IMG/VR virus record: IMGVR_UViG_3300012232_000037
Coordinates: 1 to 31,950 of that record
Direction: 5' to 3' (one strand)
Length of the DNA: 31,950 nt
From: a virus
Taxonomy: Duplodnaviria; Caudoviricetes
Shown here: piece after piece, positions 1,949 to 31,284 of the stretch
How positions within the stretch are numbered: position 1 is the first letter of the stretch
Layout: every line of letters starts with the position of its first letter
Made by a program: the position numbers and the translations under genes
Notes under the pieces: model-generated
Seen by the model: only the letters and a program-made list of their open reading frames with translations
What the model was told of the DNA's origin: nothing
Database searches by the model: none

Positions 1949-1968
1949 TGCGCCAAGGAACTACGTGA

Positions 1969-6832: not shown

Positions 6833-7149
6833 GCAACGGCAAGCCGCTGATCGAGGTGTTCATCGTCAGCACGGATGGCGAGAGCATGACCAAGACCACG
6901 TTCGACTTCGACATGGTCATGGGTGTCTCACCGTTCACCCACAAGATGCGTAACGCCGAGGGCAAGTTCCAGCCCGTCATGGGTTCCATGCTGATGCTGA
7001 AGAACAACCGCGAGATCTTCGTGAACAACGAGTACTCCACGCTCTGCGACCAGTGGATCAACTTGACGCACGCCTGCGTCCTGAACGACGAGTTCACCGG
7101 GACGTGCAAGTGCGGGGAGAAGTACACGATCCGGAACCGCAAGCCGTGA
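6829..7149 (+). CDS. Hypothetical protein
   Basis: ATGA-coupled to the polymerase stop. C-terminal H-x-C...C-K-C cluster. Confidence 0.7.
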   Translation: MSNGKPLIEVFIVSTDGESMTKTTFDFDMVMGVSPFTHKMRNAEGKFQPVMGSMLMLKNNREIFVNNEYSTLCDQWINLTHACVLNDEFTGTCKCGEKYTIRNRKP

Positions 7150-7433
7150 ACCGCTACCTCATCCTGCTCGAGAAGCAGTCCTACGACGGTGACACCTGCG
7201 CCCGCTGGTGCATCGCCGGGGTACGCAAGCACGAGCTGAACCACGCTGAGGCGACCTGTCAGATCAAGGGCGACCGCTTCGGCAAGACGAAGAACGGTGG
7301 ACCTGTGGCGTTCATCGCCCAGTGCCTCGTGATCTGGGAGTGCTCTGACGAACCGGACCTTCGCCCACAGACCCGGTTCATCATCGAGAAGTGGGCCAAC
7401 GGCGACTTCGTCGTAGATGCGAGCATGGAATGA
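7146..7433 (+). CDS. Hypothetical protein
   Basis: GTGA-coupled start (MNRYLILLEK...). Stop overlaps the ligase ATG. Confidence 0.65.
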   Translation: MNRYLILLEKQSYDGDTCARWCIAGVRKHELNHAEATCQIKGDRFGKTKNGGPVAFIAQCLVIWECSDEPDLRPQTRFIIEKWANGDFVVDASME

Positions 7434-9044: not shown

Positions 9045-9065
9045 CTGCAGTTCTCAAGTCGTAGC
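9034..9065. repeat. 12-bp direct repeat TCAAGTCGTAGC at the junction of the convergent arms
   Basis: Exact copies at 9034-9045 and 9054-9065. Confidence 0.75.
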
Positions 9066-9836: not shown

Positions 9837-10033
9837 ATCGTAGCCGCCTTCCATTTGGCTAGGACCGCGTCGTAGGTCTCGTTCGTGTCGTACCGCTTCT
9901 CCGGCCTCGTCTTGATCACCACGATCGCCGCACCGTTCTTGTTCTTCGCGATCGCGAGGATCTCTCGAGCGTCGACGCTCAACACCCCGAACTCAGTGGT
10001 GTCGACAGTGATGATGTGACTGGGAGCCGGCAT
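9833..10033 (-). CDS. Small hypothetical protein, FlbD/SwrD-like pattern
   Basis: 66 aa, coupled at both ends. Beta-rich pattern ending in ETYDAVLAKW, reminiscent of FlbD-family proteins. The family call is weak. Confidence 0.55.
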   Translation of the reverse strand: MPAPSHIITVDTTEFGVLSVDAREILAIAKNKNGAAIVVIKTRPEKRYDTNETYDAVLAKWKAATI

Positions 10034-10555
10034 CTAAGCCTCCGCGTAATGCTTCTTGTCGAGGTTCTCCGGTTGCGGTGGCGCGATCTGCCCAACCAAG
10101 GGCAACGGCTCCTCCAAGTTATCGTTGCGAAGACCGTGTCTGATGAGGAACTGCTTCACCATCCCGGGTGTGCTCAGCGACGAGTAGGGGATCAGCTCGA
10201 CCCGCATTCCCATGATGAGAGCCAGCGAGAGGTTCGCGGCCACCACGGTGTTGATGTGCTTGAGCGCCGACTCGTAGCTCGACGCATGCCCGGTCTTCAC
10301 CATCGACGACGCGCAGGCGTGGGCTTCCCTGATGGGGATCAGCATCGTTACCTGATGACCATTGGCGTTGAAGTACGCGATCCACTCGCGGATCCGGTTC
10401 CAGTGGTTGATGATCACCCACTCCTTCGAGTAGTTGATGTTGTAGTCCGTTGGTTGGTCCGTGCTCCCCGAACCACTGAGTCCGGCGCGGGTTAGGATCG
10501 CCGCTACGAGTCTGTTGCCACTGCTCTGGGGACCGCAGACGATGAAAGATCTCAT
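10034..10555 (-). CDS. PAPS-dependent sulfotransferase-like protein
   Basis: FIVCGPQSSGNRLVAAIL (5'-PSB-like loop), LIPIREAHACASS (3'-PB-like R...S), LIPYSSLSTP...FL...GL (YEDL-like). Start ATG 10555 overlaps the upstream stop. Confidence 0.7.
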   Translation of the reverse strand: MRSFIVCGPQSSGNRLVAAILTRAGLSGSGSTDQPTDYNINYSKEWVIINHWNRIREWIAYFNANGHQVTMLIPIREAHACASSMVKTGHASSYESALKHINTVVAANLSLALIMGMRVELIPYSSLSTPGMVKQFLIRHGLRNDNLEEPLPLVGQIAPPQPENLDKKHYAEA

Positions 10556-11328
10556 AGGTCGGGCGGCGGATCCGGTGGGACGTATCCGCCTTGTCCTGTA
10601 AATGGGCAACCACCCTGAGCGATCACGTTCGGGGCGTTTGCCAGTCCATTGAAGCACGCGTAGTTCGGGTTCCAAGCCCTATAGCCCAACAGGTCTGTTC
10701 CTAGTCCGGACGTATACGCAGGCCAGTTCAAGGTTGCAGCAGGGTTCGACATACCATCGAAAGGGTTGCCGTATCCGAGCTCGATCTGAAAGTTGATGGG
10801 GAAGTAGATGTCCTGATTACCACCGGTCCAGAAGTACTGGTTCCCGACCTTGACGATCAGGTTGGTGGAGTTCAGTCCCAGTGCGAAGCCGTTACCTACC
10901 GGCGTGAAGTTCTGTGCACCGTGCCCAATCGTGCTGATGCTGGGTGTGAACCCCACATTGGGGTTAGTCCCGTAGTACGCGATCATGTACCCCGAACGCC
11001 ACATCCCTCGGATGCGCCATGCGTTGTACACGACCTCCGAACCGATGATCTGCGCCTGCGTGAAGAACGGGGTGAGGTCGATCGTGGCGATGTTATCGAC
11101 CCAGAGGTTCGACCACGTGAACCCACCAATGACCGCAGGTCCGGGACCGCTGAACAGATTGAACGGCGTGTTCTCGAAGTACTGGTAGAAGTCCTCAGCG
11201 ATCAGTCGCCTACCAGTCGCCTGATAGAACGAGAGCTCGTCAGGGATGTGGAGCGGCTCGTCTTCCCGCATCCCGAGCAGATGCCCGGGTTCGTCGACGT
11301 ACCTCTCCTTGGTCACATGAACCGTCAT
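10552..11328 (-). CDS. Hypothetical protein, probable minor tail or tail-tip component
   Basis: 258 aa, Gly/Asn/aromatic-rich and beta-type, coupled within the tail operon. Confidence 0.6.
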   Translation of the reverse strand: MTVHVTKERYVDEPGHLLGMREDEPLHIPDELSFYQATGRRLIAEDFYQYFENTPFNLFSGPGPAVIGGFTWSNLWVDNIATIDLTPFFTQAQIIGSEVVYNAWRIRGMWRSGYMIAYYGTNPNVGFTPSISTIGHGAQNFTPVGNGFALGLNSTNLIVKVGNQYFWTGGNQDIYFPINFQIELGYGNPFDGMSNPAATLNWPAYTSGLGTDLLGYRAWNPNYACFNGLANAPNVIAQGGCPFTGQGGYVPPDPPPDL

Positions 11329-14762: not shown

Positions 14763-17700
14763 TCATACTGTGAGTACCCCTTCGAAGTCCATCTGGAACG
14801 TTCCGCCCTTCTCAAACGCCTCGTCCGCCAAGTCGATGTCGGAGCTGGTCGAGTAACCGACCCACTTGCGACCTCGCTCGTCGATGTAGTAGATCTTCTT
14901 GCCCTTGCATACCCTGAGGAAGTTACGGACCTCCTCGAGCTTGAGGTACGAGAGTTCGTTCCACGTCAACGGCTGCGGTTCGTAGGTCGGGGTACGCGCG
15001 TGCGGGCGAAGCTTACCTCCACGGGTTCGGTTGACCTTGACCTGCAGGGACTGCCTTCTAGCGTTCCCGTACTCCGGCTTCTTGAGCTGGACCGTGAGCT
15101 GCAGATCGGGGAGAGGACCGATCAGGTAGACGAAGTCGAGATCGTTGGGGTCCGCGATCGGTCGCTCAGGGGTGAAGGCCGGTTCGCAGCCCTCGTCGGC
15201 CTTCATCGCCACGAGACCGACGATGAAGTTGATGATGCCGGTCAACGGCTTCCGCAGGGTGAAGTTCAGCCCGAGCACCGACCCGAAGTTGATGGTCTGA
15301 GTGATGGTCAGGTTCTTGACGACGCTCGTGGACAGGACGCCGGAGAACGTGATGGTGTTCTCCATGTCTGCTTCCAGCACCCTGTTCAACGACGAGGTGA
15401 AGTGGATCGTGTGAGACAGAGCCTTGACCGGATCCTTGTTGCCCTGCAGCTCGTGGGTGAAGTGGATCGTCTGGGTGATAGGGGTGTGGATCGTTCCTTC
15501 CAAGTGTTGCGTGAAGTGGATCACCCCAGGCGTGAGGACCTTTGTCCTCGCGAAGTTGAGCTGCTGAGTGAAGTGGATCGTCGACCGGAGACCGATGCCA
15601 CGGATCGCAGAGAGCAAGCTGGTGAACGTGATCCCGTTCGACATGACGCGCTGCTGCGTCGACAGGATCGAGGTGAAGTTGATCGTGTTCTCCATCGCGG
15701 CTGCGTTGCCCGAGATGATGTCCGTGGAGTAGAAGTACTCCTCCGAACCACGCATCGAACCGACCACACCGCGGGTGTAGTTCAGCGAAGATCCATACCC
15801 CGGACCGTGGACGGTCTGGATGTTGTCCCGCGTATTGGAGGTGATCGTCGTCTTCGCCCAGGTCCCGTCTGAACCACGGCGAGCGTGGACTACGCCGAGT
15901 CCCAGCCCGGAGGACGCGAAGCAAATGATCGCGGTCCTGAGGTTCAGCGACAGCGACGGGTAACCCTGGTCCGCATCTACATCGTCGTGGACGTACTCAA
16001 CCGCCGCCCAGACGGTCGTCCGCTTGAAGTACGCCAGCCTCACCCGACCGGTGTAGATCGTTCCACGGACGCGGCAGGCGACATGCACCTGACCGAGATC
16101 GTCGATCGCGATCGAGAGGCCAGTGTGGAAGTCCGTGATGTTGTTGCCGCTCGAGGCGGTGTGGATCAGCTCCTCGGTTCCCCACGAACCGGTGTACTTC
16201 CGGTAGTAGAGCTTGTGCGTTCCACCGGAGCGGATGCTGTAGACCGCGTGCACGTAGCCGTTGGTGTCCGTGCAGGCCGCAACGCGGCGATACCTCTGAG
16301 GACCGGTACCCGCCGTGTCACCGTCCTTGATCAGGAGCGAGGTCCACGTGGTCAAGTTGGAGGAGGTCCATGAGAAGACGCGCCGGTCACTGGAGGTGTT
16401 GATGAAGCCTGACACGAGCATGTAGATCGAGCCCGTGTAGACGATCTGCATCGACTCGGACTCGGCCAGCGGAGAGTTCAGCTGCTTCTTCAGGACCCAC
16501 GTGCTACCGTTCCACTGGTAGATGTAGAAGTCGTCGTTCGAGGCTCGGGTGAGCACGAGGACCGGGGCATCACCTGCGCCGATCGCCATGCACGCCCCGA
16601 AGGGAACCCACGTGGGTCCGACAGCCACCACCGTCCAAGTGGTTCCGTTGTCCGAGGAGTACGAGGTCTTGATCGAACCGCCGCTGTAGTACACGTGCCA
16701 GATCACACCAGCGGCCGTCTTCACGATCTGACGTCCACCACCAGGGATGAAGTTCACCGCAGCCGAGGTGACCTCACGGATGACGAAGCCCTGGGTCGAG
16801 AGCTGCTGGTTGAACCGGATCGTCTGGGAGATCGTCTGGTTGTAGATCGCCGTGCCTTCGTCCCAGTCGATGTCAGTCGCGATGCGGAACAGGAGGTTCG
16901 CCGTGTTGGTCGACTTGGTCGCGATGTACGCGAAACCGGTATCGTACTGAGTGCACTTGAACGCGGCGTGATACAGACCACCACCACCTGCGTTGTCATC
17001 GTAGGTGTTCTGGTTTGTCCAAGCCGTCCGCGCAGCTCCCGTGACCGTCCCGTGCTCGTGGTTGAACTTCGTGTTGCCGTCACGGCGAGGTGAGATGTAG
17101 TGGATGTACGGAACGCCACCGACGACGTTTGCTTCGATGCAGTAGTCACCGTCAGCGGTCGTATCACTCTCAGGGATCCGACCTGCGGTTGACCAGGAAC
17201 CCGAGGACTTGTTGATTCCCCACGCCTGATTGATCGCGGAGCCGCTACCGGCGCGCCAGGTCCAGTAGATGTATGGAGCACCGCTCGAGTTCAGGACGAT
17301 GCTCACACCGATCATCGCGTAGGCGTCGGTGGTTCCCGCGCTGACGTACGCTTCCTCGACGCTGTACGACGGGGAGCCAGAGGGCGTGCTGATCTTCCCG
17401 TAGAACATCGTGTAGACCGAGCTACCGCTGTTCCTACCGCCAGCGGCAGCGAAGTGGATGTCACCAGCCGCGTCAATGATCGGGTTGACTCGGCGTGTCG
17501 CGTAGCACGCGAACTGGCCGCCACCATTGGAGTAGTTGCTCAACGCAAACGGGCTGCCGGTGATCGCCGTACCTACCCACGGACTTCCAGGTACGTACCT
17601 GGTTACCGCGATGCGGTTGGTTCCCGAGTTACCACCGCCAGAGCTCGCCGGCTGGATCAGGAAGAAAACGTCCGTCAGAGGCGAGCCGAGCATGTAGAAG

Positions 17701-18095
17701 TGCTCTTGGCTGTTGCTGGAGTACTGGCTGCCGACCGTGATGACGGAGGTCCAGGATCCGGTGGAGGTCGGGGTCGACCTCTCATAGACGTTCATCTGGT
17801 TCGCTGCGGTGCCGGAGACGATGCACACCAGTCTTCCAGAGACATTGAACGACATGCCGCAGGATCGGATCACCGCGCCGCCGCTACCAGCATCGAACAC
17901 CGTCTCAGCCGCGGACCACGTGGCACCCGAGTCGTCCGAATAGCGAGCCTTGATGTACCGACCGTCGCTGGTGGCGTACGCGACCCACAGACGACCACCC
18001 ACCAACCTGACGAGGTTGTTGCCGAACTGCGAGCCGTAGCTCATAGTCGCGGCGCCATGATCAGTCGTGATCGTCGTTTCGGTGAAGGTCGGCAT
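14763..18095 (-). CDS. Tail protein: two BNR/sialidase-like beta-propeller regions, repeat linker, C-terminal Dit-like domain
   Basis: Asp-box motifs SDDSGATW and SSDNGTTW each open a region of about 380-400 aa with repeated GxxHxxY / W-S/T blades. The C-terminal ~110 aa (VNRTRGG...LEEVRNFL...GKKIYYIDERGRKWVG...FEG) resembles a distal tail protein. Confidence 0.7.
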   Translation of the reverse strand: MPTFTETTITTDHGAATMSYGSQFGNNLVRLVGGRLWVAYATSDGRYIKARYSDDSGATWSAAETVFDAGSGGAVIRSCGMSFNVSGRLVCIVSGTAANQMNVYERSTPTSTGSWTSVITVGSQYSSNSQEHFYMLGSPLTDVFFLIQPASSGGGNSGTNRIAVTRYVPGSPWVGTAITGSPFALSNYSNGGGQFACYATRRVNPIIDAAGDIHFAAAGGRNSGSSVYTMFYGKISTPSGSPSYSVEEAYVSAGTTDAYAMIGVSIVLNSSGAPYIYWTWRAGSGSAINQAWGINKSSGSWSTAGRIPESDTTADGDYCIEANVVGGVPYIHYISPRRDGNTKFNHEHGTVTGAARTAWTNQNTYDDNAGGGGLYHAAFKCTQYDTGFAYIATKSTNTANLLFRIATDIDWDEGTAIYNQTISQTIRFNQQLSTQGFVIREVTSAAVNFIPGGGRQIVKTAAGVIWHVYYSGGSIKTSYSSDNGTTWTVVAVGPTWVPFGACMAIGAGDAPVLVLTRASNDDFYIYQWNGSTWVLKKQLNSPLAESESMQIVYTGSIYMLVSGFINTSSDRRVFSWTSSNLTTWTSLLIKDGDTAGTGPQRYRRVAACTDTNGYVHAVYSIRSGGTHKLYYRKYTGSWGTEELIHTASSGNNITDFHTGLSIAIDDLGQVHVACRVRGTIYTGRVRLAYFKRTTVWAAVEYVHDDVDADQGYPSLSLNLRTAIICFASSGLGLGVVHARRGSDGTWAKTTITSNTRDNIQTVHGPGYGSSLNYTRGVVGSMRGSEEYFYSTDIISGNAAAMENTINFTSILSTQQRVMSNGITFTSLLSAIRGIGLRSTIHFTQQLNFARTKVLTPGVIHFTQHLEGTIHTPITQTIHFTHELQGNKDPVKALSHTIHFTSSLNRVLEADMENTITFSGVLSTSVVKNLTITQTINFGSVLGLNFTLRKPLTGIINFIVGLVAMKADEGCEPAFTPERPIADPNDLDFVYLIGPLPDLQLTVQLKKPEYGNARRQSLQVKVNRTRGGKLRPHARTPTYEPQPLTWNELSYLKLEEVRNFLRVCKGKKIYYIDERGRKWVGYSTSSDIDLADEAFEKGGTFQMDFEGVLTV
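15210..15695 (-). repeat. Nine tandem 17-20 aa repeats, consensus hydrophobic-x-x-T-I-x-F-T-x-x-L
   Basis: MENTINFTSIL, MSNGITFTSLL, LRSTIHFTQQL, TPGVIHFTQHL, ITQTIHFTHEL, LSHTIHFTSSL, MENTITFSGVL, ITQTINFGSVL, LTGIINFIVGL. A tenth copy, ISQTIRFNQQL, lies at 16797-16832. Confidence 0.9.
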
Positions 18096-18111
18096 TGCTC
18101 ACCCTTGGAAG

Positions 18112-18171
18112 CCGGCGCCCAGTTTTACCCGAGCGCCGGTGAAGAGAGGGAAACGGCGCCGTGCCGCCGTT
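18112..18171 (-). terminator. Two intergenic hairpins, possible terminator or attenuator
   Basis: Minus strand: AACGGCG-GCACGG-CGCCGTT followed by TCCCTCTCTTC, then CCGGCGCTCGG-GTAAAA-CTGGGCGCCGG. The U-tract is poor. Confidence 0.45.
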
Positions 18172-18183
18172 AGACGACGAGGT

Positions 18184-19029
18184 CTAGCTCGCCGTCGTGC
18201 TCAGGGTGTACGTGAGCTTGAGGGTGTCGAGGTTCGACACCGTCTGGTTGCCGCCCGAGAACGTCGCCGTCATGAACAGCGTGCCGGTGTTCCCGCTCTT
18301 CGTGGACACGGACGTCAGGAAGCCACCGGCCACCGTGCCGGATCCGCTCATCGAGAAGTCCGACGTCGTGGTCGACGTCATCGATCCCGAGGACGCCGCA
18401 GTCTCGTCCCACGCGACGCGGTTCGTCTGGGAGTACGTCGTGTACTCCGTCCAGCCGGCGTGGCTGGCCATCGTGTCCGCGGCCGAGAGGGTCGGAGTCG
18501 AGCTGCCGTTGATCAGACCGAGGTACCACGTGGTCACCGGCGTTCCCGCGTGGAACTCCGTGTCCAGGATGTGGTTCAACCCGGCCGTCGTGATGCCGTT
18601 GATCTCGGCCGTGCGGATCGAGATCAGCTTCCCCTCGCGCCACTGCTCCGACGTCAGCGCGCCTCCGACGACGAGCGCACACGCGATCCCGGTGCGGATC
18701 ACGAACGCCTTCGTCCAGTTCCACGGCATCAGCTTCCTGACGAAGTTGATGAACGACTTCGCCGCAGCGACCATCGCTCCCTTCGTCAGGGCGAACGCGC
18801 CGATCATCGCCAGGCCCGTCTTGGCCTTCGACTCGATCTCCGCGCGGTTCATGAGGTGGGTCACCTCGTCCTCGCTCAGGTTGCCGAACTCGGCCTTGAG
18901 CTCGAGGAACTTCGAGAACCGGATCGTGCGGAGACGGTCCTCGCGCTCCGCAGTCCGCTTCGCGAGAGCGATCTGGCGCTCGCGCTCCTGTTCCGGCGTG
19001 AGCCGGACCACTTCCGCATCCATCCTCAT
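18184..19029 (-). CDS. Virion fibre/decoration-like protein: Ser/Thr-rich beta domain with charged N-terminal extension (281 aa)
   Basis: GGAGG RBS before ATG 19029. The C-terminal domain NGITTAGLNHILD...WYLGLI...DTMASHAGWTE...RVAW...F..SGSGTVAGGFL...GTLF...DTLKLTYTL is a pattern I recognise from phage structural proteins. Confidence 0.7.
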   Translation of the reverse strand: MRMDAEVVRLTPEQERERQIALAKRTAEREDRLRTIRFSKFLELKAEFGNLSEDEVTHLMNRAEIESKAKTGLAMIGAFALTKGAMVAAAKSFINFVRKLMPWNWTKAFVIRTGIACALVVGGALTSEQWREGKLISIRTAEINGITTAGLNHILDTEFHAGTPVTTWYLGLINGSSTPTLSAADTMASHAGWTEYTTYSQTNRVAWDETAASSGSMTSTTTSDFSMSGSGTVAGGFLTSVSTKSGNTGTLFMTATFSGGNQTVSNLDTLKLTYTLSTTAS

Positions 19030-19030
19030 G

Positions 19031-22000
19031 TCACTTCCTCCGGGTAAGAGCGGGTGCCTCGCCACGCTCGATGTGTCTCTTGAGAACCCTCGCCAGCTTC
19101 CGAGCATCAGCCTTCTTCGGTCCACCACCCTCGGAGCCGGCATTGATCGTGGTGCCCCGCATGTCAACGTTCGTCGTGTTCGTCGTGTTGTTGCTTGTGC
19201 TGCTGGTTCCGACCGGAGCTACCGTTGCGCCGGTGCCCTGCAGCAGCATGTTCTTCGTAGCCTCGTCATTGGCCAGAGCCTTGAGCAGGAAGTCCGGAAC
19301 CGTGGAGAGTTCCATCTTGACGGCCTTGATCTTCTCGATCGTCCGATCCAGGGCTTCGATCGCAGGGTCCTCTTGGATGTCGAGGAAGAACTGGGACTCC
19401 TCCATCAGCTCCATGATCCGGGTCTTGAAGCCCTCGAGCGCCTGTTGGTCCGGAGCCTGACCGAGCTTCTGCATGTCACGCGTCAGGTCGATGATGCTCT
19501 GAGAGAAGGCCTTGAACCGCGTCTCGATGACGTTGGCGTTGTTGAGGAAGGCTGCGGTTGCCTGCTCCGAGAGCGCCATCTTGTCTTCGATCGCGGTCTG
19601 CTCGGCCTGGTAGACCTTGTCCATCTCGGTCCGGAGTCGCTCGAGGGCGTCGACCACCGTCTCACGATTCTTCTTCGTGTTGAGGGTGTCGATGCCGAGG
19701 ATCGACTCGTAGATGCTGGACGCCTCTCCGATCAGCCGCTGAACCTCGTCACGGTCTCCCAGACCGGCGGCGATATTGGCTCGCTTCTCGAGCAGCTCGC
19801 CCCGTTCGATGCGGGACTTCATGATCTCGCCCGGAGTCTTGTCCTGCTCCTCGATCCGGTCGATGGACTGTTGAACCGCGTCGTCGTATCGCTCGCGGTC
19901 CTTGGTCAGGTCCTTGAGCTGACGCTGCAGGTTCTTGGTCAGCTGCTCTTGCTCGGTGGCCATCTTGCGATAGCCACTGATGATGTTCTTGATCGAGTCA
20001 GAGTTGTCGTGGACCCACTGCTTCAGCAGGACCTCACCGTCCTTGACCTGCTCCTTCAACTTGTTGATCACCAGTTCCTTGACCGCAGCAGCCTGATCCC
20101 TGATCGCCTCGGTCGCCGTGGAGGTCTTGATCTTGAGGGACTCCTGGAACTTGAGCAGGGCTTCGTGGTCCGCCTTGCTGTTTTCGATGATCGTGTCGAG
20201 GTCCCTGATCTCCTGCTGCAGCTCGTGGATCTTGTCAGCGTTGTCGCCCAGCGCCTTGGCAGAAGCCTTGGCGGGCTCGAAGATCATCCCGATGCCCTTG
20301 CCCCATTCCTGGAACGTCTGCTCGACCTTCTTGTCGTTCTCACGGATCTTGTCGTTGGCTTCGGTGATCTTGGCCTGGAGCTCGTTCCGCTTGGCGGTCA
20401 GCTCCTGGATCTTGGGAGCGTCGTCGCTGGCTCCGCGGTTCTTCATCGACTTGATCGTCTCGTCGATGCCTCGCAGCTCGGCCAGCCAGATCTTCGCGGC
20501 CGTCATGTTGAACGCGGTGGAGGTCGCAGTGGCGAGACCCTGCATACCCTTCCAGACCGAGTACACCGCAGCAGCCACGATGCCCATCAGAGCAGCCACA
20601 CCAGTTGCGACGAACTGGATCGTGCCGAGGAAGTAGCGAGAAGCGAGCTCGAGGGTCTTGAACTTCTGCTGGATCCCGAGCATCGCCGCTTCCACACCGC
20701 CCGACTTGTCGATCCACTCCCTAAAGCCTTCCATCAGGCCGGAACCCATCTCCATCGCGGAGATGCGCATCTGCGCCATCAGCCTGTTCCACCGGACCTC
20801 GGTGGTGTTCATCATCTCGCCGAGGTGGATGTCTCCCTCACCGACGGAAGCGAACATGTCTTCGAAGATCGACTTGAGAGCTTCGAACTGGGAGCCGGTG
20901 ATCTCACCCCAGGCCCGCAGCTCACGGAAGTCCTCGGTCATCTGCTCGATCAGCGCGGGGTTCTTGGCGAGAGCTTCGCGGATCTTCTCGATCTGCTTGA
21001 TGAACCCTTCGGCCTTCGTCTGCTCCGGCGAGAGCGTGATGCCCAAATCGCGGAGGATCTTCTTGGCCTCAGGTCCCTGCTTCGTGATCAGCTTGAAGAG
21101 GTTGATCAGCATCGTGCCCGCTTGCTCAGGTCCCTTGGTGCGGGACAGGGCTGCGAAGCCCGCGAGCATCTCCTGCATGTTCACGCCAGCCAGGGCGGCG
21201 ACGGAGGAGATCTTGCCGATTTCACCAGCGAACTGGTCGACCTCAACGCGACCACGATCGGTCATCACGAAGATCATGTCGCGAAGGCGGCTCATGTCCT
21301 CGGTGGTGAGCTTGAACGCGTTGCGCATCATGGACATCATGTCCGCGGTCTTCTCGATGGAAGTCGAGTGCGTAACCGCGAGTTTGCCCGCCTCGTCCAT
21401 GAACTTGCGGATTTCACCGGGAGGCACGTCGCTCGAGATGGCGATGCGGAAGCCTTCAGCCGAGGCCATCGGCGACATGCCGAATGCCTTCGAGAACTCC
21501 TTCACCTGGGAGGTCAGACGCGGCAGATCGGACTCGCCCTTCTTGACGAGGATCATGATCTTCTGCATCGCGTGCTCGAAGTCGCTGGCCATCTTGAACG
21601 TAGCGCCGAGCGTAGCACCGGTCACGAGAGCGAACAGACCGGAGATCGACGCGGTCATGAATGCCATCGAGCTACCGGCCGAGGAGAGCGAGCGAACGAG
21701 GGACATGACGCCCTTCGCGGCGGTCTGGCTGCCTCGTTCGATCGCGCTGAACGTACCGGCGACCATCTTGCTTTCGAGCTTCCCACCCACCCCGAACAGC
21801 GATCCGAAGAGACCACTGGTGTCGGGCTTGGTGATGTACTTCCTCGCGGTCGCGGCTTCCATGTGGACGAACATCTGGTTCATCTCACGGTTCGCATCGA
21901 CGCGTCGGACCTGGAGCTTCTCGGCCTTCTCCTTCTCGATCATCTTGAGGAGCTTCATCCGGTACGTCTGCTCCATCTCGATGCCAGCGAGGGTGCGCTT

Positions 22001-22975
22001 CAGACGGGCGTCGTCCTTGGCCTGGATCTCCGCCTTCTCCTTCTCGATCATTCCGAGCAGGGTGAGACGGTAGTCCTCGACCTCCTTCATCCGGGCCTGG
22101 GTACGCTTGAGCTCAGCGTCCTCCTGGTCCTGGATCTTCTTCTTTTCCTTACGGATGTCCTTGAGCAGCTTGAGGCGATAGGCCTCGGTCTCCTCCATGA
22201 GCTGGATGTTGCGCTTCAGACGAGCGTCGTCCTCGGCCTGATGCTGATCCTTGATGCGCTTCAGCTTCGCGATCTTGTCCTTGACGATGTCGATCGCAGC
22301 GCCGATCTTCGAGAGGTTCTTGGCTGCGTCGTCCTCACCGAAGCCCAGCGAGAACTTGGGGATCTTGACGCCAGCCACGTCGGCCATCTGGACGAGCTTG
22401 CGGTAGCGCTTCGCCTGCTGGAGAAGTCCCTGCTCCGCGAGGAAGTCGATGTCCTTCGTGAGGAGGATGTCCGGCGACATCCCGCGCTTCTTCTTGCCGG
22501 TGGTGGGGTCCACCGCATCGCGCATCTGACCGGGGCCGAGCTTGTCCTTCAGGGTCTCAGCCATGCTGAGAACCTTACGCCGCGCCTCTACGAAGAGGCC
22601 TTCGTCGATCGCCTGCTTCTTGAAGGCGAGACCGAGCTTGGCGAGGGACTGTTCGACGTTCGAGTTACCGACGATGAGCTTCATCACCTGGGCGTTAACC
22701 GCCTCTGAGGTGGAACCCATCGCGGCCATGATCTTGCCGGCTTCGGCACCCGAGGCGAGGAGGTTCGAGAGGGTGGCTTGCGTCTCGGCGCTCACGCCAC
22801 CGATTGCGGCGATGCCCGCACCCGCCTCCATGCTTCCGCCTGCCAGCTTCAGCAGGACGGCGTTCATGTTCTCCATGAACCCCATGAAGGCGACGGTGTG
22901 ACGCTGAGCCTGGCTCAGTCCCTCCGCCCACTTGGCGGAGTCTATTCCTAAACGAGCAGAGACCTCGTCACTCAT
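19031..22975 (-). CDS. Tail tape measure protein (TP901-type core)
   Basis: 1314 aa, helical, rich in Ala/Lys/Glu, directly after the chaperone pair. Core FEHAMQKI...FGMSPMASAEG...GVNMQEMLAGFAALS...AGTMLINL. Confidence 0.93.
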   Translation of the reverse strand: MSDEVSARLGIDSAKWAEGLSQAQRHTVAFMGFMENMNAVLLKLAGGSMEAGAGIAAIGGVSAETQATLSNLLASGAEAGKIMAAMGSTSEAVNAQVMKLIVGNSNVEQSLAKLGLAFKKQAIDEGLFVEARRKVLSMAETLKDKLGPGQMRDAVDPTTGKKKRGMSPDILLTKDIDFLAEQGLLQQAKRYRKLVQMADVAGVKIPKFSLGFGEDDAAKNLSKIGAAIDIVKDKIAKLKRIKDQHQAEDDARLKRNIQLMEETEAYRLKLLKDIRKEKKKIQDQEDAELKRTQARMKEVEDYRLTLLGMIEKEKAEIQAKDDARLKRTLAGIEMEQTYRMKLLKMIEKEKAEKLQVRRVDANREMNQMFVHMEAATARKYITKPDTSGLFGSLFGVGGKLESKMVAGTFSAIERGSQTAAKGVMSLVRSLSSAGSSMAFMTASISGLFALVTGATLGATFKMASDFEHAMQKIMILVKKGESDLPRLTSQVKEFSKAFGMSPMASAEGFRIAISSDVPPGEIRKFMDEAGKLAVTHSTSIEKTADMMSMMRNAFKLTTEDMSRLRDMIFVMTDRGRVEVDQFAGEIGKISSVAALAGVNMQEMLAGFAALSRTKGPEQAGTMLINLFKLITKQGPEAKKILRDLGITLSPEQTKAEGFIKQIEKIREALAKNPALIEQMTEDFRELRAWGEITGSQFEALKSIFEDMFASVGEGDIHLGEMMNTTEVRWNRLMAQMRISAMEMGSGLMEGFREWIDKSGGVEAAMLGIQQKFKTLELASRYFLGTIQFVATGVAALMGIVAAAVYSVWKGMQGLATATSTAFNMTAAKIWLAELRGIDETIKSMKNRGASDDAPKIQELTAKRNELQAKITEANDKIRENDKKVEQTFQEWGKGIGMIFEPAKASAKALGDNADKIHELQQEIRDLDTIIENSKADHEALLKFQESLKIKTSTATEAIRDQAAAVKELVINKLKEQVKDGEVLLKQWVHDNSDSIKNIISGYRKMATEQEQLTKNLQRQLKDLTKDRERYDDAVQQSIDRIEEQDKTPGEIMKSRIERGELLEKRANIAAGLGDRDEVQRLIGEASSIYESILGIDTLNTKKNRETVVDALERLRTEMDKVYQAEQTAIEDKMALSEQATAAFLNNANVIETRFKAFSQSIIDLTRDMQKLGQAPDQQALEGFKTRIMELMEESQFFLDIQEDPAIEALDRTIEKIKAVKMELSTVPDFLLKALANDEATKNMLLQGTGATVAPVGTSSTSNNTTNTTNVDMRGTTINAGSEGGGPKKADARKLARVLKRHIERGEAPALTRRK
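21917..22240 (-). repeat. Three 36-aa (108-bp) tandem repeats in the tape measure protein
   Basis: QAEDDARLKR...YRLKLLKDIRKEKKKI / QDQEDAELKR...YRLTLLGMIEKEKAEI / QAKDDARLKR...YRMKLLKMIEKEKAEK. Confidence 0.85.
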
Positions 22976-23186
22976 CCTCGGGTCCAGCCTTCTCCAGCAT
23001 TCTCAGCTGGGAGTACGCAAGGAGCAGAACCTGCTGGTTGTACGTCAGGTCATTCCACGGCTTTCCGTAGTAGCTGCGCGGGTCGACCAGCTCGACCGCG
23101 CGCAGCTGCCAGTAGTCCATGCTGCGACCGGAGTGCTTGGGCAGCTTCTCCGGCTGCCCGTGAACACCCCGGACGATCAGTTTCCC
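22968..23186 (-). CDS. Tail assembly chaperone frameshift extension (gpT-like), reached by a -1 shift
   Basis: The -1 frame is open from the slippery site: GKLIVRGVHGQPEKLPKHSGRSMDYWQLRAVELVDPRSYYGKPWNDLTYNQQVLLLAYSQLRMLEKAGPEDE, ending at TGA 22968-22970, which overlaps the first codons of the tape measure gene. Confidence 0.85.
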   Translation of the reverse strand, partial: GKLIVRGVHGQPEKLPKHSGRSMDYWQLRAVELVDPRSYYGKPWNDLTYNQQVLLLAYSQLRMLEKAGPEDE

Positions 23187-23695
23187 TTGGAAGTCTCGAT
23201 GTCCTCCGAGAGGTTCATGAGGCCGGTGATCTCACCCATGAGCTTGGTCAGATCGCCCATGGTCAGGCCGAACTCCACGAACCGATCGAACAGGCCGTAG
23301 AAGAACTCGGCCTTCGTGACGTCGGCGCCGTTCGCTTCGAAGTCCACGGACGGATCGTCGATCCCGTGGAAGAGGATGTAGGCCATGCGGCCGTGGATGA
23401 TCTTCGAGTTCGCCTCACGCCACTCCTTCGTCTCGACGTCGACGATGGTGGTCTTCTTCGTCTCCGGATCCCGCATGATGACGCCGGACGCGTTCTTCAG
23501 GTAGTCCTGCGGCTTCACGGGTTCCGGGAACAGCTCGAACATCTTCTGGTCGATGCCCATCGCGAGGGCACGGACCCTGATCTGGATCACTTCCTGCTGC
23601 TCGACCTGCTTGCCATCGACCTCCTCGGAGGTCGTACGCACGAGCGTGACGACCTTCCGAGGGGTGTTGAGCTTCGCCTTGCCACGGATCTTCAT
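23177..23695 (-). CDS. Tail assembly chaperone (gpG-like), 172 aa
   Basis: AAGGAG RBS, start MKIRGKAK, between tail tube and tape measure genes, ends ...SKGN at the slippery site. Confidence 0.85.
   Translation of the reverse strand: MKIRGKAKLNTPRKVVTLVRTTSEEVDGKQVEQQEVIQIRVRALAMGIDQKMFELFPEPVKPQDYLKNASGVIMRDPETKKTTIVDVETKEWREANSKIIHGRMAYILFHGIDDPSVDFEANGADVTKAEFFYGLFDRFVEFGLTMGDLTKLMGEITGLMNLSEDIETSKGN
23180..23186 (-). promoter_or_regulatory. Programmed -1 ribosomal frameshift site G GGA AAC
   Basis: X XXY YYZ heptamer in the correct phase, directly before the chaperone stop. The lambda G/GT site is GGGAAAG. Confidence 0.88.
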
Positions 23696-23745
23696 GTTCA
23701 GTTCTCCTTCTCTTCGGTGAAGCGGCCTAGACGCCGCGGTTGTAG

Positions 23746-24258
23746 CTAGACGCCTCGGGTGCTGGTGGGCTCGAGCGACGCGCAGATGCCCGTGTACGTC
23801 GTCATGTCCGCGTTGTCGCCCTCTTCGAAGGCGATGTCGTCGCAGTGGAAGTCCGGCAGAACGATGCGCTCGTTCTGGTCGATGCCGTTCGCCTCGCACG
23901 GGTTGTCGAGATCGAAGCGGATGTCGACGCAGTACGGACCGCAGTCCAGCGTGCTGACCCAGTCCGCCGCGTTGCCCACTCGGCGCATCGCGTCGGGAAC
24001 GGAGGGAACGGTCGCGAACGCCGTGAGCGTCCTGCCCGTCCACTCCTCGAACTTCGCCGAGAACGAGGCGTTCATCGGCTCTTCGTTGCCCTCGGCGAGT
24101 CCGGCGACTCGGCCGCGGTTCATGATCACCTTCGCCGGGCGGCGGACGTTGAACCGGAGGTTCCCGTCCTCGATCGGAACCACGAGGGTCTTCGGCGTCG
24201 TGCTGCCGTCGACCAGCGTGATCTGCCCGTGCGTCAGGTTTCTCGTCCTCTGACTCAC
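23746..24258 (-). CDS. Major tail tube protein
   Basis: AGGAGG RBS before GTG 24258 (MSQRTRNLTHGQITLVDG...). 170 aa, beta-rich, canonical position upstream of the chaperone. Confidence 0.75.
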   Translation of the reverse strand: MSQRTRNLTHGQITLVDGSTTPKTLVVPIEDGNLRFNVRRPAKVIMNRGRVAGLAEGNEEPMNASFSAKFEEWTGRTLTAFATVPSVPDAMRRVGNAADWVSTLDCGPYCVDIRFDLDNPCEANGIDQNERIVLPDFHCDDIAFEEGDNADMTTYTGICASLEPTSTRGV

Positions 24259-24268
24259 TGTTCTCCTC

Positions 24269-24757
24269 CTAGCTGGCGATGAGCACAGCCTGGAACGTGA
24301 CAACCACACTGTGGGTGTTACCCTGCTCCACAGCGAAATTGCCTTCACCTTGGAACGTGATGTTACGACGCGGCAGGTAACTTTGCCGTGCCTCTTTGAT
24401 CTGGAGAACTCCTATGACCGGCTCGGGAGCGACACCGATCGTTCTGATCGGGACATCCGTCTTCTCGAGCGCGGTGCGGAGTCTGGACGCCATCTTGAAT
24501 GGCGCCAGTGTGTCGTGGTCCTCTCGAGCTTCCTCGAGCTTGGAGCAGCAGGCGACCTGCCACACCATCATTCCACCCCAGACGGCCTTGCGCGTACGCA
24601 TACGGGCGTCACCGATCGGGGTGAAATCGAACCACTCCTCTGCTTCGTTGTTCGGTCGAACGCCTACTGAGTTGATCGTGGAATTGGGGAACGCGGCCTT
24701 GAGAGCTGCGAGGAACGACAGGTGAGCGTAGGGCTCGATCAGGTCGAGGTCACTCAT
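24269..24757 (-). CDS. Probable tail terminator / completion protein
   Basis: Start MSDLDLIEPY, 162 aa, positioned between the gp10-like gene and the tail tube. Call rests on synteny. Confidence 0.6.
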   Translation of the reverse strand: MSDLDLIEPYAHLSFLAALKAAFPNSTINSVGVRPNNEAEEWFDFTPIGDARMRTRKAVWGGMMVWQVACCSKLEEAREDHDTLAPFKMASRLRTALEKTDVPIRTIGVAPEPVIGVLQIKEARQSYLPRRNITFQGEGNFAVEQGNTHSVVVTFQAVLIAS

Positions 24758-25988
24758 GCTCGCGCTCCTGCTTCGAGAACGAGCCCCAGGTCTTCTGCAG
24801 GTCGCGTGCCTGTCTCTCGAGCATGTCCTGAGCAAGCGACTTGCCCTGCTGTTTCACTCCCTCCGAGGGACCCATCCTGACGTGCTCCACCTCTTCGATC
24901 ACCCGGCTCATGACGCCAGAGCGTTCGAAGGTGTGGCCGACGTAGTTGACCGAGATCCGACGAACCCTGCTCTCGAAGATCGCGTTCCTCTCGGGGAGAT
25001 CTCCGACCGTGTGCCAGTCCTTGGGGTCATCGGTCCGCAAGGCCATGTACGCCATCGCGTTCAGGTGAGCCACGGGCTTGTCGAGCGGCAGGCGGATCTC
25101 GAGGCGCGACATGAGTTCACGCCACGCCATCGAGGGAAGCTTGCGCTCCATCTTCTGAGGATCGAACGGCACACCGGCCTTCTGCTCCTCATCGTAGGTG
25201 AAGCCGCGAAGCGCGAACTGCTTCTCCTTCCAGAAGGCGATGAGCTCGTCCATCAGGTTCCGGAGTTCGGTCCGGGCCTGGAGCATCGTGGTCCGCACCA
25301 TGCCCTGCGGAGCCTTGTCCGAGTGCCCGTGCTCGAGGAAGATCACGTACGGGACCGAGGTGGAGATCCGGAAGCCCACGTGACCGTAGCCACGACCCTT
25401 GCCTCGCAGCTGCGGCGAGATCGTCCAGCCAGCAGCCGCTTCACCGGTATCGTACGGCGTCTTCCACACAATCTCCATCAGCGCCCAGCGTCCCACGTGC
25501 CAGACCACGAAGCGCGCACCGATGAAGGGGATACCGGTGATTGCCAGCAGTCTGTTGAGCGGAGCGCGGATCGCCTTGATGTTGACGAGCTGCGCCTTCT
25601 TGCCGAACCGATCCATGCGGGTCGAGAGGCGCATCTGCGAGCCAGCGGAGATGTACGGCAGCAACCCGAAGGCGGGGAACTCCTGGAAGCCGTGGAAGTC
25701 CCTCGGACCCTTCGCCTTGTGGGTGAGGGTGCTCCCGGGCATCTGGACCTTCTTCCCGCTGGAGGTGCGGAACGTCGGGCCAGAGATCTTCGTCGTGGCA
25801 GGCATCATCCGGGTGTGGGACGAGGGAATCGTTGAGGGGACCGACCGAGCCAGAGCCTTCATCTGACGAGAGCGGGCGATGTGCGCCATCGCGGTCTTCG
25901 CCAGACTGGCAGCGCGAGACGAGCCGGCACGAGGGTAAGTACCAGTGGTCTTACCCTTGTTCCCGCCAGTGTCGCGGACGATGCTCAC
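24750..25988 (-). CDS. HK97 gp10-like tail completion protein with long extensions (412 aa)
   Basis: Central TPYDTGEAAAGW...STSVPYVIFLEHGHSDKAPQGMV matches the gp10 family pattern (PxDTG...W...YxxxLExG). GGAGG RBS. Confidence 0.75.
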   Translation of the reverse strand: MSIVRDTGGNKGKTTGTYPRAGSSRAASLAKTAMAHIARSRQMKALARSVPSTIPSSHTRMMPATTKISGPTFRTSSGKKVQMPGSTLTHKAKGPRDFHGFQEFPAFGLLPYISAGSQMRLSTRMDRFGKKAQLVNIKAIRAPLNRLLAITGIPFIGARFVVWHVGRWALMEIVWKTPYDTGEAAAGWTISPQLRGKGRGYGHVGFRISTSVPYVIFLEHGHSDKAPQGMVRTTMLQARTELRNLMDELIAFWKEKQFALRGFTYDEEQKAGVPFDPQKMERKLPSMAWRELMSRLEIRLPLDKPVAHLNAMAYMALRTDDPKDWHTVGDLPERNAIFESRVRRISVNYVGHTFERSGVMSRVIEEVEHVRMGPSEGVKQQGKSLAQDMLERQARDLQKTWGSFSKQEREHE

Positions 25989-26003
25989 GTCTTCAGAACC
26001 TCC

Positions 26004-26420
26004 CTATTCTCTGCACCACAGGATGTACATGTAGCTCATCGGGTCTCTGTCGATGCCCAGCACGTGGTACGTCTTGTCGGAGAACTTCAGCTCATCGCCG
26101 ATCTTCGGCTCGATCTGCATCTCCTTGATTGAGACCTCAGCACGGATATCACCGACCTTCAGGTGGCCGTTAGCCACGTCGAGGAGGTCTCGGAAGTTGA
26201 TCACGTATCGACCGACGTGGCAGAGGCTGACCTTCTGCTCGGTGGTGTTCATCTTCCCGTCACGACCGAGCGTCTTCGTGTACCGGGTGAACATCGCCTC
26301 TTCCGGATTGTCGAACATCAGGTAGTCGTTAGACACATCCATGAACATGGCAGGCTCACGACACACCGCGAGATTCGAGGTGAAGTCGATCGAGCCGGTC
26401 AGGTCCTTGGTGTAGTCCAT
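26004..26420 (-). CDS. Head closure / head-tail adaptor (gpFII or SPP1 gp16-like)
   Basis: EPKIGDELKFSDKTYHVLGIDRD...YILWC beta-barrel pattern, and synteny. Confidence 0.7.
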   Translation of the reverse strand: MDYTKDLTGSIDFTSNLAVCREPAMFMDVSNDYLMFDNPEEAMFTRYTKTLGRDGKMNTTEQKVSLCHVGRYVINFRDLLDVANGHLKVGDIRAEVSIKEMQIEPKIGDELKFSDKTYHVLGIDRDPMSYMYILWCRE

Positions 26421-28805: not shown

Positions 28806-29819
28806 TTAGCTCCCCTTCCCGATGGCCTTGGCGAAGCCCTTCGACGTGGACGTGTCGTTCGTCGGGGCGCCGGCGTGCTCGCCGACTCCCTTCGCGATCG
28901 AGCGCGGCGTCGAGATCTTGCCGGTGGTCTTGTCCGCCAGTTCCTTGCGTTCGGCGAGCAGGGCGGTGAACCGCTCGTCGGACGTGCTCGACTCCAGGCA
29001 CATGGCCTGGAAGACGGGCGTGTTGAGGTGCTCGGGGAGCTTGGCTTCCCCGATCTTCGTCTTCCTGGTCTCGTCGCGCGTGGCCTTGGCGGTGACCGCC
29101 TTGTGCCCGTCGATCTCGACCTTGAGCTTCCCGTTCTCCGCCTCGGCGGCCGTGACCTTCGTCTCGAGCTCCTTGAGACGCTGGTCATTCGCGAGAGCTT
29201 CCGCGACGGTCAAGACCTTGAGGTCCTGACGCGCCGCCTGGATCGCCTCACGCGTCATGGAGTTGAGCTCCACGGGGTGATCTCCTTCCTGCATGGCGGC
29301 GCTTTCGTAAAGGCCGGCCGTGGTACCGCCATTGCTTACCACGTCGACCGAGTGAACCTTGGCGATTCTGTGCGTGTGGAACCAGCCGCTCTCGAGATGT
29401 CCCTCGAGGTCGGCCAGGTGAGACAGGGCGTAGGACGCCGGATCGTTCTCCGCGGCCCACTTGACCGCGTTCGCGAACGGGTGTCCGGGGTTGAGGTGGA
29501 GATCTCCGACGATGCCCCGCGACTCGTCGACGCGGGCGTTCCGGATCCGGCCGAACGAGGAGGTCGTGGCCGAACGCGGGACGTTCTTCTTCGCGGGTTC
29601 GTACAGCCCGGCGGGGTGATCGAAGTTCACCATCGCGTTCTCGTACAGCGAGACCGACGCCCGCATCGCGGCGACCGGGTACTTCCGCTTGTGAGACGGC
29701 GATTCGAAGCCGAGGACCTTCACGCCGGTGATGACGTTCGAGCCTTCGGCGATCTTCGTACCGGGTGCCGACCATTCGGCGACCGTCTCGCGCATGGGTC
29801 GTTCAGCGACTGAAGACAT
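28806..29819 (-). CDS. Prohead protease - scaffold fusion
   Basis: Protease-like N-terminus (GVKVLGFES, VNFDHP, GDLHL, ALSH, VHSVDVVSNGGTT), then a coiled-coil scaffold region. Confidence 0.85.
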   Translation of the reverse strand: MSSVAERPMRETVAEWSAPGTKIAEGSNVITGVKVLGFESPSHKRKYPVAAMRASVSLYENAMVNFDHPAGLYEPAKKNVPRSATTSSFGRIRNARVDESRGIVGDLHLNPGHPFANAVKWAAENDPASYALSHLADLEGHLESGWFHTHRIAKVHSVDVVSNGGTTAGLYESAAMQEGDHPVELNSMTREAIQAARQDLKVLTVAEALANDQRLKELETKVTAAEAENGKLKVEIDGHKAVTAKATRDETRKTKIGEAKLPEHLNTPVFQAMCLESSTSDERFTALLAERKELADKTTGKISTPRSIAKGVGEHAGAPTNDTSTSKGFAKAIGKGS

Positions 29820-31284
29820 AGGTCATCACTCCTTCCCGTCCGAGCATCTGCTCGGTCGCGGTCTTGGCCTTGAACTTGAAGCCCTTGCTGGCCATGAACA
29901 GGACGAACCCGTCGTCTGTCCAGTAGTGGAAATGCTCGTCGGGGCGGAAGTGCTTCGAACTCAGAGCATGCTCCCGGTCCTTGAAGATCGGCAGCGTGAC
30001 CACCACTCCCCTCTTGATCCTGTCGAGGATCTCGAAGTTCTCCAGGTGTTCCAGGCTGTCCCAGAACGTGGCCACGTCAACCGAAGCGAGGAGATCCGGG
30101 TTAGCCCAGCGACCGATGCTCTTCAGGTACTCGTTCGTGTGGGGATTGATGTCGTAGCCCAGGGCGTTGGTGGACCTCACGAACTGACAGGAACCGGGAC
30201 CCACGTCGAGCAGTTGTGCGTCGGGGAAGAACTCGTTGACGATGTCGATGCGGAAGTTGTTGAGCTGTCGGCCGAGTGGGGTCTGCTCGTAACCCGCGTA
30301 CTTGTCGAAGTACGCCTTGCCGTACTGGCCGTTCAGGTGGACGGGGTAGTAGCCGTAGCCCTTCTCGTCGTCCCACTTGAGAAGCGCCTTGCAGGCGACC
30401 TCCTTGAACTTAGCCTCGAGTTCGACGGAGTCGAGCACCTTGTTGCACGGCGGGTTGTTGCCGGGGTGACGCGAGGTGATCCCGCACTCGCACATCGGCT
30501 TGGGCTCGACGGCCGCGTACGGGGCACCGAGCATCCACTTCTCGACGAGCAAACGGTCAGGGACGTCGCCACCGTACAGGCAGAGAACCGGGGTCCTCAG
30601 AGCGATCCCCAGCGGAAGCATGAAGCCCACACTGGTGACGATGACGTCGGCGACAGCCATCAGTCCGATGAGCTGTTCCGTGGTGAACTGACCGTGCATC
30701 ACGGACCGGGCGACGCCCGTGAGGGGAGCGCCGAGCCGGACCTCTTCGGGTTCCTTGAGCCACCCGAGTTCCCACCACTCGAATTCCTGGTGCTGGTCGA
30801 TGAGCTGCTGCATGTACTTCGGGTCGTTGCCGCGGGCCGCGTTGGGCCACTCGGTCCGAACCGTTGCGGGGTGAACGATGGCGAACGGCTTGCCCTTCGG
30901 CTTGACACTGTTGGCCCACTCGATCCACTCGGGCTTCGCGATGTACTTGAAGTCCACCGGACCGGGGTTGAAGCCGGTGGAGTGGTACAGAGCCTCGGGG
31001 ATCGTCTGGCCTGCGCGGAAGTTACTGGTGGAGTAGCCTGGACGCTTGCGGTCGTACGGGGACTCCGGCGGATCGTCGTAGGGCTCGGAGTACGTCTCGA
31101 GATTCGCCGCCTGGGTTCGGAGCTGAGTCTCGGCCTTGAGGATCTTGACGGGGAGATCCCACCAGAGTTGGGGCCACGAGGTGCGGACCCAGACCTCCCA
31201 TCCCTGTGCGAGACAAGCCAGTGCAACGACACGCTGGTACGCGTTGTCGCCCATCCCATGCATCGTCTCGAGGATGACCCTCAT
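29803..31284 (-). CDS. GT9-like (GT-B) glycosyltransferase fused to a class I SAM methyltransferase
   Basis: N-terminal HGMGDN, IVHPAT, LIGLMAVADVIVTSVGFMLPLGIALRTPVLCLYGG and CEC...C (heptosyltransferase-like). C-terminal LLDVGPGSC, GYDINP, TFWDSLEHL, DEHFHYWT (Methyltransf_23-like). Confidence 0.85.
   Translation of the reverse strand: MRVILETMHGMGDNAYQRVVALACLAQGWEVWVRTSWPQLWWDLPVKILKAETQLRTQAANLETYSEPYDDPPESPYDRKRPGYSTSNFRAGQTIPEALYHSTGFNPGPVDFKYIAKPEWIEWANSVKPKGKPFAIVHPATVRTEWPNAARGNDPKYMQQLIDQHQEFEWWELGWLKEPEEVRLGAPLTGVARSVMHGQFTTEQLIGLMAVADVIVTSVGFMLPLGIALRTPVLCLYGGDVPDRLLVEKWMLGAPYAAVEPKPMCECGITSRHPGNNPPCNKVLDSVELEAKFKEVACKALLKWDDEKGYGYYPVHLNGQYGKAYFDKYAGYEQTPLGRQLNNFRIDIVNEFFPDAQLLDVGPGSCQFVRSTNALGYDINPHTNEYLKSIGRWANPDLLASVDVATFWDSLEHLENFEILDRIKRGVVVTLPIFKDREHALSSKHFRPDEHFHYWTDDGFVLFMASKGFKFKAKTATEQMLGREGVMTYVFSR

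Follow-up and report, generated by a model that had tools for sequence, protein, structure and literature searches.

The locus and its repeated peptide

We analyzed a stretch of 31,950 bases (the window), which makes up the virus record IMGVR_UViG_3300012232_000037 (Duplodnaviria; Caudoviricetes; estimated completeness 59%), with emphasis on a short peptide motif that recurs in a Dit-like tail protein (14763-18095), on a head-closure protein that carries one further copy (26004-26420), and on the gene for a fibre-type subunit (18184-19029; the bead gene) whose product is predicted to dock on this motif. On the minus strand, which encodes all three, the genes are ordered as capsid, neck, tail tube, chaperone, tape measure, 18184-19029, 14763-18095 and a gene for a 1070-residue tail-tip protein. 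The tape measure gene matches PF10145; because the structural module has no sheath gene, we infer that the phage is a siphophage. NCBIfam gave nothing useful for 11 window proteins. Related loci and contigs compared with the window are designated by L-numbers (L001 etc.). The features of the Dit-like gene, which sits between the tape measure and tail-tip genes, are as follows.

14763-18095 (minus strand): 1110-residue Dit-like protein bearing the putative rope, with a variable N-terminal domain, one site, a conserved middle domain, the nine-site rope and a Dit-like core
14766-15200 (minus strand): Dit-like core, residues 966-1110; putative anchor at the end of the tail tube (Atlas neighbours, model, gene position)
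15213-15695 (minus strand): rope of nine putative docking motifs with a spacing of 17-20 residues (motif positions; conservation in related ropes)
15705-16790 (minus strand): conserved middle domain (63-75% identity in L001-L004)
16794-16844 (minus strand): single putative docking motif at the junction of the two domains, in its extended form YNQTISQTIRFNQQLST (kept in L001-L004)
16851-18095 (minus strand): variable N-terminal domain, candidate receptor-binding tip (exchanged in relatives)

A preliminary description of this DNA had placed nine tandem copies and one single copy of the consensus hydrophobic-x-x-[TS]-I-x-F-T-x-x-L in the Dit-like protein. All ten were found where they had been placed, the tandem copies beginning at residues 801, 818, 836, 855, 873, 893, 911, 931 and 951 of open reading frame (ORF) 14763-18095 and the single copy at residue 422 (core 16800-16832); the strict consensus, however, fits only four of the nine tandem copies (as well as the copy in the head-closure protein), and the remaining tandem copies fit IxFxxxL. 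This loose form occurred 19 times in the six reading frames, six times at unrelated places. A profile built from the ten Dit copies scored the head-closure copy at 16.0 bits, with 6.6 bits as the next best score among 4231 windows of 11 other structural proteins; the head-closure match is beyond chance.

Among five related ropes, phenylalanine at position 7 (F7) was present in 44 of 45 motif copies and positions 5 and 11 were hydrophobic in all 45, with serine or threonine (S/T) at position 4 in 32 copies, S/T at position 8 in 28 and NxS/T in 14. An extended form, Y-x-K-x-hydrophobic-x-H/Q-T-I-x-F-x-S/Q-x-L, is common to the single site in Dit and the site in the head-closure protein. Locus L122, which contains unknown residues, was left out of alignment A6.

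The architecture of the Dit-like protein was compared among four close relatives (L001-L004), in which the N-terminal domain has been exchanged and the single site, the middle domain, the nine-site rope and the core have been retained; by tblastn, the N-terminal domain had no match in these four loci, where matches begin at residues 395-422. When modelled as a monomer, the rope region had a predicted local distance difference test score (pLDDT) mostly below 50, with some strands assigned at low confidence, as compared to 73-93 for the core. ESM Atlas neighbours of the core include the lambda gpM-type family PF05939 (11% of members) and DUF6711, its Foldseek matches were weak (all E > 0.01) and nearly all to tail tube, Dit or terminator folds (p2 Dit 2WZP, E 0.055), and Sipho_tail matched 1 of 36 relatives. 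The two domains flanking the single site had been called propellers; we found only a sub-threshold BNR_2 match (E 0.004), for the N-terminal domain, and our reading of the sequence hints that the middle domain may be a propeller. Neither the Dit-like protein nor a profile of rope plus core had a significant match when PDB sequences were searched.

The Dit-like proteins of L008, L019, L020, L027 and L044 carry one to three extra motif-like strands after the Dit core at the C-terminus, so that the tag appears to have been appended to both ends of these proteins.

The bead protein

The bead gene and its surroundings comprise the following features.

18184-19029 (minus strand): bead gene, 281 residues, fibre subunit of the gp80/gp41 type (homology, model, fold matches, codon use)
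18187-18597 (minus strand): bead domain, residues 145-281, matching GP4 gp80 from gp80 residue 3 (VIA Z 9.9)
18598-18675 (minus strand): conserved beta-hairpin, residues 119-143, with Asn144; candidate propeptide boundary (Asn kept in 107 of 111 homologues)
18691-19029 (minus strand): lineage-specific helical leader of 113 residues, holding two chance IxFxxxL matches (model, conservation)
18085-18183 (minus strand): intergenic hairpins after the bead gene (fold z -2.84)

[quoted passage not shown] An AlphaFold2 model of the bead (pLDDT 88) consists of the helical leader, the hairpin at residues 119-143, and then a helix and an incomplete beta-sandwich, as in the gp80 fold. The best fold match of the model was GP4 fibre I (8JOU; VIA Z 9.9, root-mean-square deviation 2.6, 119 residues aligned, model residues 145-277), for which Foldseek gave E 2.5e-4. 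It was followed by an HFTV1 baseplate domain (Z 9.8), a Bas63 neck chain (Z 7.2) and the Sf14 neck chain 9C39_K (Z 7.0), and similarity to the phi812 arm segment, A511 gp105 and T4 gp8 lay at Z 6.3-6.5 (6.5 for phi812 and A511 gp105). PF23140 (Gp80) matched 27 of the 111 bead homologues at E 0.01. In tblastn searches against cultured phages, the window bead found nothing and a bead homologue found 10 records. Judged by sequence and modelled fold, the product of 18184-19029 belongs to the A1002 gp41/GP4 gp80 family of fibre beads. It had previously been taken for a pilin-like subunit; the model matches the GP4 gp80/A1002 gp41 fibre fold instead, and no pilin was seen among the listed fold matches, a result still compatible with a remote relation.

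Two looser matches in the N-terminal extension of this protein, LRTIRFSKFL and SFINFVRKL, had been put forward with the reservation that they could be fortuitous. They scored only 5.8 and 3.8 bits on the profile of the Dit copies, fell in predicted helices (residues 12-48 and 83-100), and had [IL]xFxxxL retained in just 2 and 5, respectively, of 20 close homologues; we regard both as chance matches.

The strong ribosome-binding site attributed to the bead gene is present as GGAGG, 7 nucleotides upstream of the ATG, and L001 and L003 retain it. As for the downstream hairpins, the intergenic region folds better than its shuffles (z -2.84), but no canonical terminator and no T-tract terminator was found. 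Codon adaptation was 0.75 for the bead gene, near the capsid gene (which was itself in the reference set), and 0.56 and 0.53 for the Dit-like and tail-tip genes. The ribosome-binding site, the downstream hairpins and the codon use fit a high-copy subunit.

GP4 gp80 aligns to the bead from bead residue 145, directly after the near-invariant Asn144, and in A1002 gp41 the equivalent residues 1-33 are not visible in the virion, for which its authors offer cleavage as a possible cause (PMC13730344). That the bead may be cleaved as a propeptide at the hairpin and Asn144 is offered as a lead only; the relatives in phi812 and A511, which keep an N-terminal part aligning with the bead hairpin region, count against it. 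The bead's own last strand (18190-18225, minus strand; DTLKLTYTL type) resembles the rope motif, scoring 13.5 bits in L024; in phi812, C-terminal strands are reported to pair with the scaffold (PMC13433997).

Head-closure tags and related loci

Two features were recognized at the neck.

26004-26420 (minus strand): head-closure protein, 138 residues (phrog_161 Hc1, E 0.0029; neck gene position)
26364-26414 (minus strand): putative N-terminal docking tag YTKDLTGSIDFTSNLAV, core 26370-26402 (profile score, conservation)

The sequence LTGSIDFTSNL was present, as previously described, at the N-terminus of this ORF. In 18 head-closure homologues (48-83% identity), F7 and L11 were invariant, position 5 was hydrophobic and position 4 was S/T in 18 of 18; as judged from these alignments, the head-closure copy of the tag is evidently under selection. 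It had been cautioned that the gene might start at the downstream Met of MFMDVS and the motif thus not be translated; this Met was found in only 5 of the 18 homologues, which argues for translation of the motif. No relative was recovered when viruses were scanned with the head-closure protein, and the alignment of tail-tip proteins offered no conserved stretch for a scan of this kind.

In a distant clade, the gene at the head-closure position carries the motif at its C-terminus. Overall, a terminal tag of at least 7 bits was found in 8 of 14 head-closure proteins (three N-terminal, five C-terminal) as compared to 0 of 38 control neck and tail proteins, which contained seven internal motif matches. 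We also assembled 68 distinct proteins from the head-closure position, from loci chosen mostly by their tail-tube gene. Their C-terminal tails comprised 0-8 residues in 13 proteins (one mis-estimated), 22-29 in 47, 46-49 in five and >250 in three, and tail lengths mostly step by ~22 residues. The mean best score of the tails was 5.07, as compared to -1.99 (standard deviation 0.49) for shuffled tails, and none of the 68 barrels reached 7 bits. In four of five tagged cases the tag was scored best by the rope profile of its own locus, the exception being L008. Family phrog_161 matched 3 of 10 proteins of the distant head-closure group (E 0.003-0.07).

Head-closure-like barrels are fused to C-terminal domains of 263-1501 residues in L231 (7444-8679), L233 (5547-7463) and L234 (2122-7059); these long domains are possibly neck-borne fibres or binding domains. 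In L024, where the Dit-like protein is without a rope, a protein at the tail-terminator position (3381-4115) has an extra N-terminal domain with one motif of 12.7 bits.

The ropes of seven distant members, which constitute the profile training set, have 10-14 motifs at a spacing of ~16-22 residues on a Dit-like core. L231 is without bead and without rope; it is the only such member, too few for a test of co-loss. A second bead gene was seen near the head genes of L214 (3191-5147), L218 (1965-4240) and L250 (888-1466), and those of L214 and L218 adjoin a second rope protein. In the Methanosarcina virus MetMV (L083:13412-14812), a rope in the window's register (nine matches) lies near two bead genes. 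The module of bead, rope-bearing Dit, tip and head closure was also found inside long Pirellulales and Thermoguttaceae assemblies (L119 and L153; prophages), pointing to Planctomycetota as hosts of the distant clade. Phages of Planctomycetota are a poorly known group.

Elsewhere in the window, positions 44-8365 (plus strand) hold a replication block with an SNF2-like helicase, a pyrimidine-dimer glycosylase, a methyltransferase, a family A polymerase and an ATP-dependent ligase. An ORF at 29803-31284 (minus strand), which flanks the structural module, encodes a methyltransferase part matching phrog_6564, fused to a part that we take, from its motifs, to be glycosyltransferase-like; two further genes flanking the module, 10034-10675 and 9054-9854 (minus strand), presumably encode a sulfotransferase and a sugar-modifying enzyme. 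Of these products, the methyltransferase part alone had a profile match.

A rope-and-bead reading and its alternatives

We consider it probable, by analogy with solved fibres and from the sequence comparisons, that the window encodes a rope-and-bead fibre carried by a siphophage Dit-like protein and that a portable docking tag of the same kind is also borne by the head-closure protein. In this reading, the repeated peptide probably serves as the strand of the rope to which dimers of the bead are predicted to bind. The preliminary description had proposed that each motif is a beta-strand bound by the domain of the 18184-19029 protein, which would coat a tether like beads on a string and be anchored at the neck; this much is likely, by homology to solved fibres and by the behaviour of the tag across relatives, and it is the pilus mode of assembly that finds no support. 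The strand-augmentation mechanism is already published for podophages and myophages, and what differs here is the siphophage Dit rope and the tag, neither of which was described in the literature searched (most subscription papers lay outside the search).

A close comparison is the Pseudomonas podophage A1002, in which rope gp39 carries dimers of gp40 and gp41; the rope, ~225 residues long, is joined by beta-sheet augmentation to 11 dimers, of which four, at the C-terminal end, are gp41 (PMC13730344). The window resembles this system in that its bead is homologous to gp41, its rope is fused to a structural tail protein with a period of ~20 residues, and the unseen N-terminal 33 residues of gp41 end beside the conserved Asn. 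Conversely, the A1002 rope belongs to a podophage nozzle with two bead genes, whereas that of the window belongs to a Dit-like protein in a siphophage-type tail module with one bead gene, bears two large terminal domains, and is accompanied by a second site on the head-closure protein. The word 'repeat' is absent from the main text of the A1002 paper (PMC13730344). KPP25 ORF005 shows no visible difference from A1002 gp39 in an alignment that spans all 620 residues; its best four-site periodic set, found with the profile trained only on Dit ropes, starts from residue 390 with a spacing of 20 and was reached by 0 of 300 shuffles, which suggests one repeat per dimer. In the same protein (L081:5949-7811), seven repeats of the LP/IP/VP type precede four of the window's register, equal in number to seven gp40 and four gp41 dimers; gp39 may carry two tag codes on one rope.

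The Ralstonia podophage GP4, whose fibre I is the top fold match of the bead model, has five gp80 dimers on a rope from a separate gene that docks on the capsid (via PMC12609058, PMC13730344); gp80 is without a leader. In Bas63 and Sf14, a neck protein bears bead dimers on one of its terminal extensions, and the incomplete sandwiches of the beads are completed by the rope (PMC12609058, PMC11821841), and the Bas63 whisker dimers on the collar extension are described as 'like beads on a string' (PMC12609058); these myophages use a dedicated collar protein with two dimers, whereas the window has one tag on the head-closure protein itself. In phi812, scaffold gp117 is threaded through gp118 dimers to form a baseplate arm with receptor-binding parts, scaffold linkers filling the gaps between segment dimers (PMC13433997). 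This arm differs from that predicted here in belonging to a contractile-tail baseplate wedge, in segments that keep an N-terminal part aligning with the hairpin region of the window bead, and in receptor-binding proteins that are separate trimers. Other arrangements have been described (PMC13252515, PMC13033339, 10.1101/2024.12.09.627619, PMC10966104, PMC13250141).

Several results weigh against the rope-and-bead reading. Co-occurrence of motif and bead did hold in number, with a rope on Dit in 27 of 27 loci selected by tail tip and a bead in 23 of 23 with enough flank, but it mostly reflects shared inheritance with one bead-less control, and the 27 loci include three training-set contigs and duplicates. 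A bead occurs with neither Dit rope nor head-closure tail in L205, L216, L126, L143 and L272, and L024 has a bead and lacks a Dit rope. A motif cluster was found in only 10 of 44 bead loci of at least 15 kb from genomes, and a profile from the window only, with clusters detected at 5 of 80 viral loci, does not extend to ropes of distant members. Only 20 of the 68 distant head-closure tails reach 7 bits, and hhalign of the two head-closure groups gave a probability of 0.8%, homology not being demonstrable. The window bead itself had no match to PF23140 at E 0.05. The four candidate sites in gp39 score 2.3-4.5 bits each and the periodic statistic was chosen after the sequence had been seen, and a cluster test on A1002/KPP25 gp39 was not significant (matched by 287 of 500 shuffles). 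Moreover, a tube/Dit fold for the core of 14763-18095 is weakly indicated, its identity and oligomer number depending on weak matches and gene order.

Four other explanations were weighed. Chaperone-usher and type V pili have the sheet of a subunit completed or extended by a foreign beta-strand, as is predicted here; a pilin donates this strand to the subunit that follows, and no ruler governs the polymerisation, whereas the solved rope-and-bead relatives take it from a separate finite scaffold. A self-polymerising pilin-like protein that donates a strand from its own N-terminal extension would account for the conserved hairpin ending at a near-invariant Asn, but the two loose matches in that extension are helical and unconserved and the fold matches are gp80-type fibre proteins, and we regard this explanation as next to negligible. 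It is also very unlikely that the repeats fold alone, into a homo-oligomeric beta-helix or a solenoid stalk, for instance, with the bead binding at another site. An alternating hydrophobic pattern is compatible with beta-solenoids too, and the rope model, a monomer prediction, assigns some low-confidence strands; however, the rope pLDDT is far below that of the core, isolated single copies at protein ends cannot build a solenoid, and the spacing of 17-22 residues agrees with the period of the A1002 rope, in which 225 residues serve 11 dimers (~20 residues each; PMC13730344).

The suggestion that the motif is a sequon for phage-encoded glycosyltransferases is highly improbable, as its fixed positions are hydrophobic. 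The window does have the fusion at 29803-31284, with its presumed glycosyltransferase-like part, and position 4 is S/T in every one of the 18 head-closure tags; in the ropes, however, F7 and the hydrophobic positions 5 and 11 are far better kept than S/T at position 4, and the candidate gp41 sites in gp39 are without S/T there. Finally, the rope might dock beads while the head-closure copy binds something else, such as the sheet edge of a neck neighbour, and recruits none. Of the 68 distant relatives, 13 lack a head-closure tag; several of these 13 possess a bead, and L005, L027 and L153 a rope as well. If, as in phi812, each strand spans two dimers, one strand by itself may be too little to retain a dimer (PMC13433997). 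Nevertheless, we consider this unlikely: the tag has the hydrophobic register and the extended Y-x-K lead-in of the single Dit site, is N-terminal in one lineage and C-terminal in another, follows the dialect of the rope encoded with it in four of five cases, and neck whiskers of the bead family are known in Bas63 and Sf14 (PMC12609058, PMC11821841).

For the rope-and-bead fibre, we infer a sequence of steps from what was computed, i.e., homology, model fold, motif conservation and placement at protein ends. The bead domain (residues 145-281) would dimerise. Each 17-20-residue repeat would form a beta-strand alongside the edge strands of the beads, with its hydrophobic positions 1, 5, 7 and 11 buried. 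Approximately one dimer would bind per repeat, and the strand would lie either within a dimer or, as is seen in phi812, across two adjacent dimers. Flanked by the Dit-like core on one side and by the two N-terminal domains on the other, the nine-site rope would thereby stiffen into an arm of ~25 nm (scaled from A1002) that keeps an exchangeable receptor-binding domain at a distance from the tail tip; the joint between the two N-terminal domains may be braced by the single Dit site. At the neck, beads recruited by the head-closure tag would form short whiskers. Assuming hexamers of both Dit and head closure, a virion would have ~66 sites and roughly 130 bead chains.

A broader proposal, which we put forward as speculative and rather doubtful, is that the 17-20-residue peptide serves as a portable, genome-specific address label, added by this siphophage clade in whole-number copies to either end of its neck and distal-tail proteins. 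Bead and tag dialect would co-evolve, so that bead number and position could be read from sequence, and the bead would be a pro-protein whose leader and hairpin are cut at the conserved Asn before docking.

Rope-and-bead fibres have been solved only recently, in a few podophages and myophages, and a sequence rule for the rope is absent from the literature consulted. Should the tag be this rule, fibre length, bead count and attachment points would be predictable from genomes. If true, the reading proposed here would extend this design to siphophage-type tails, as a ruler-defined arm with a swappable receptor-binding tip.

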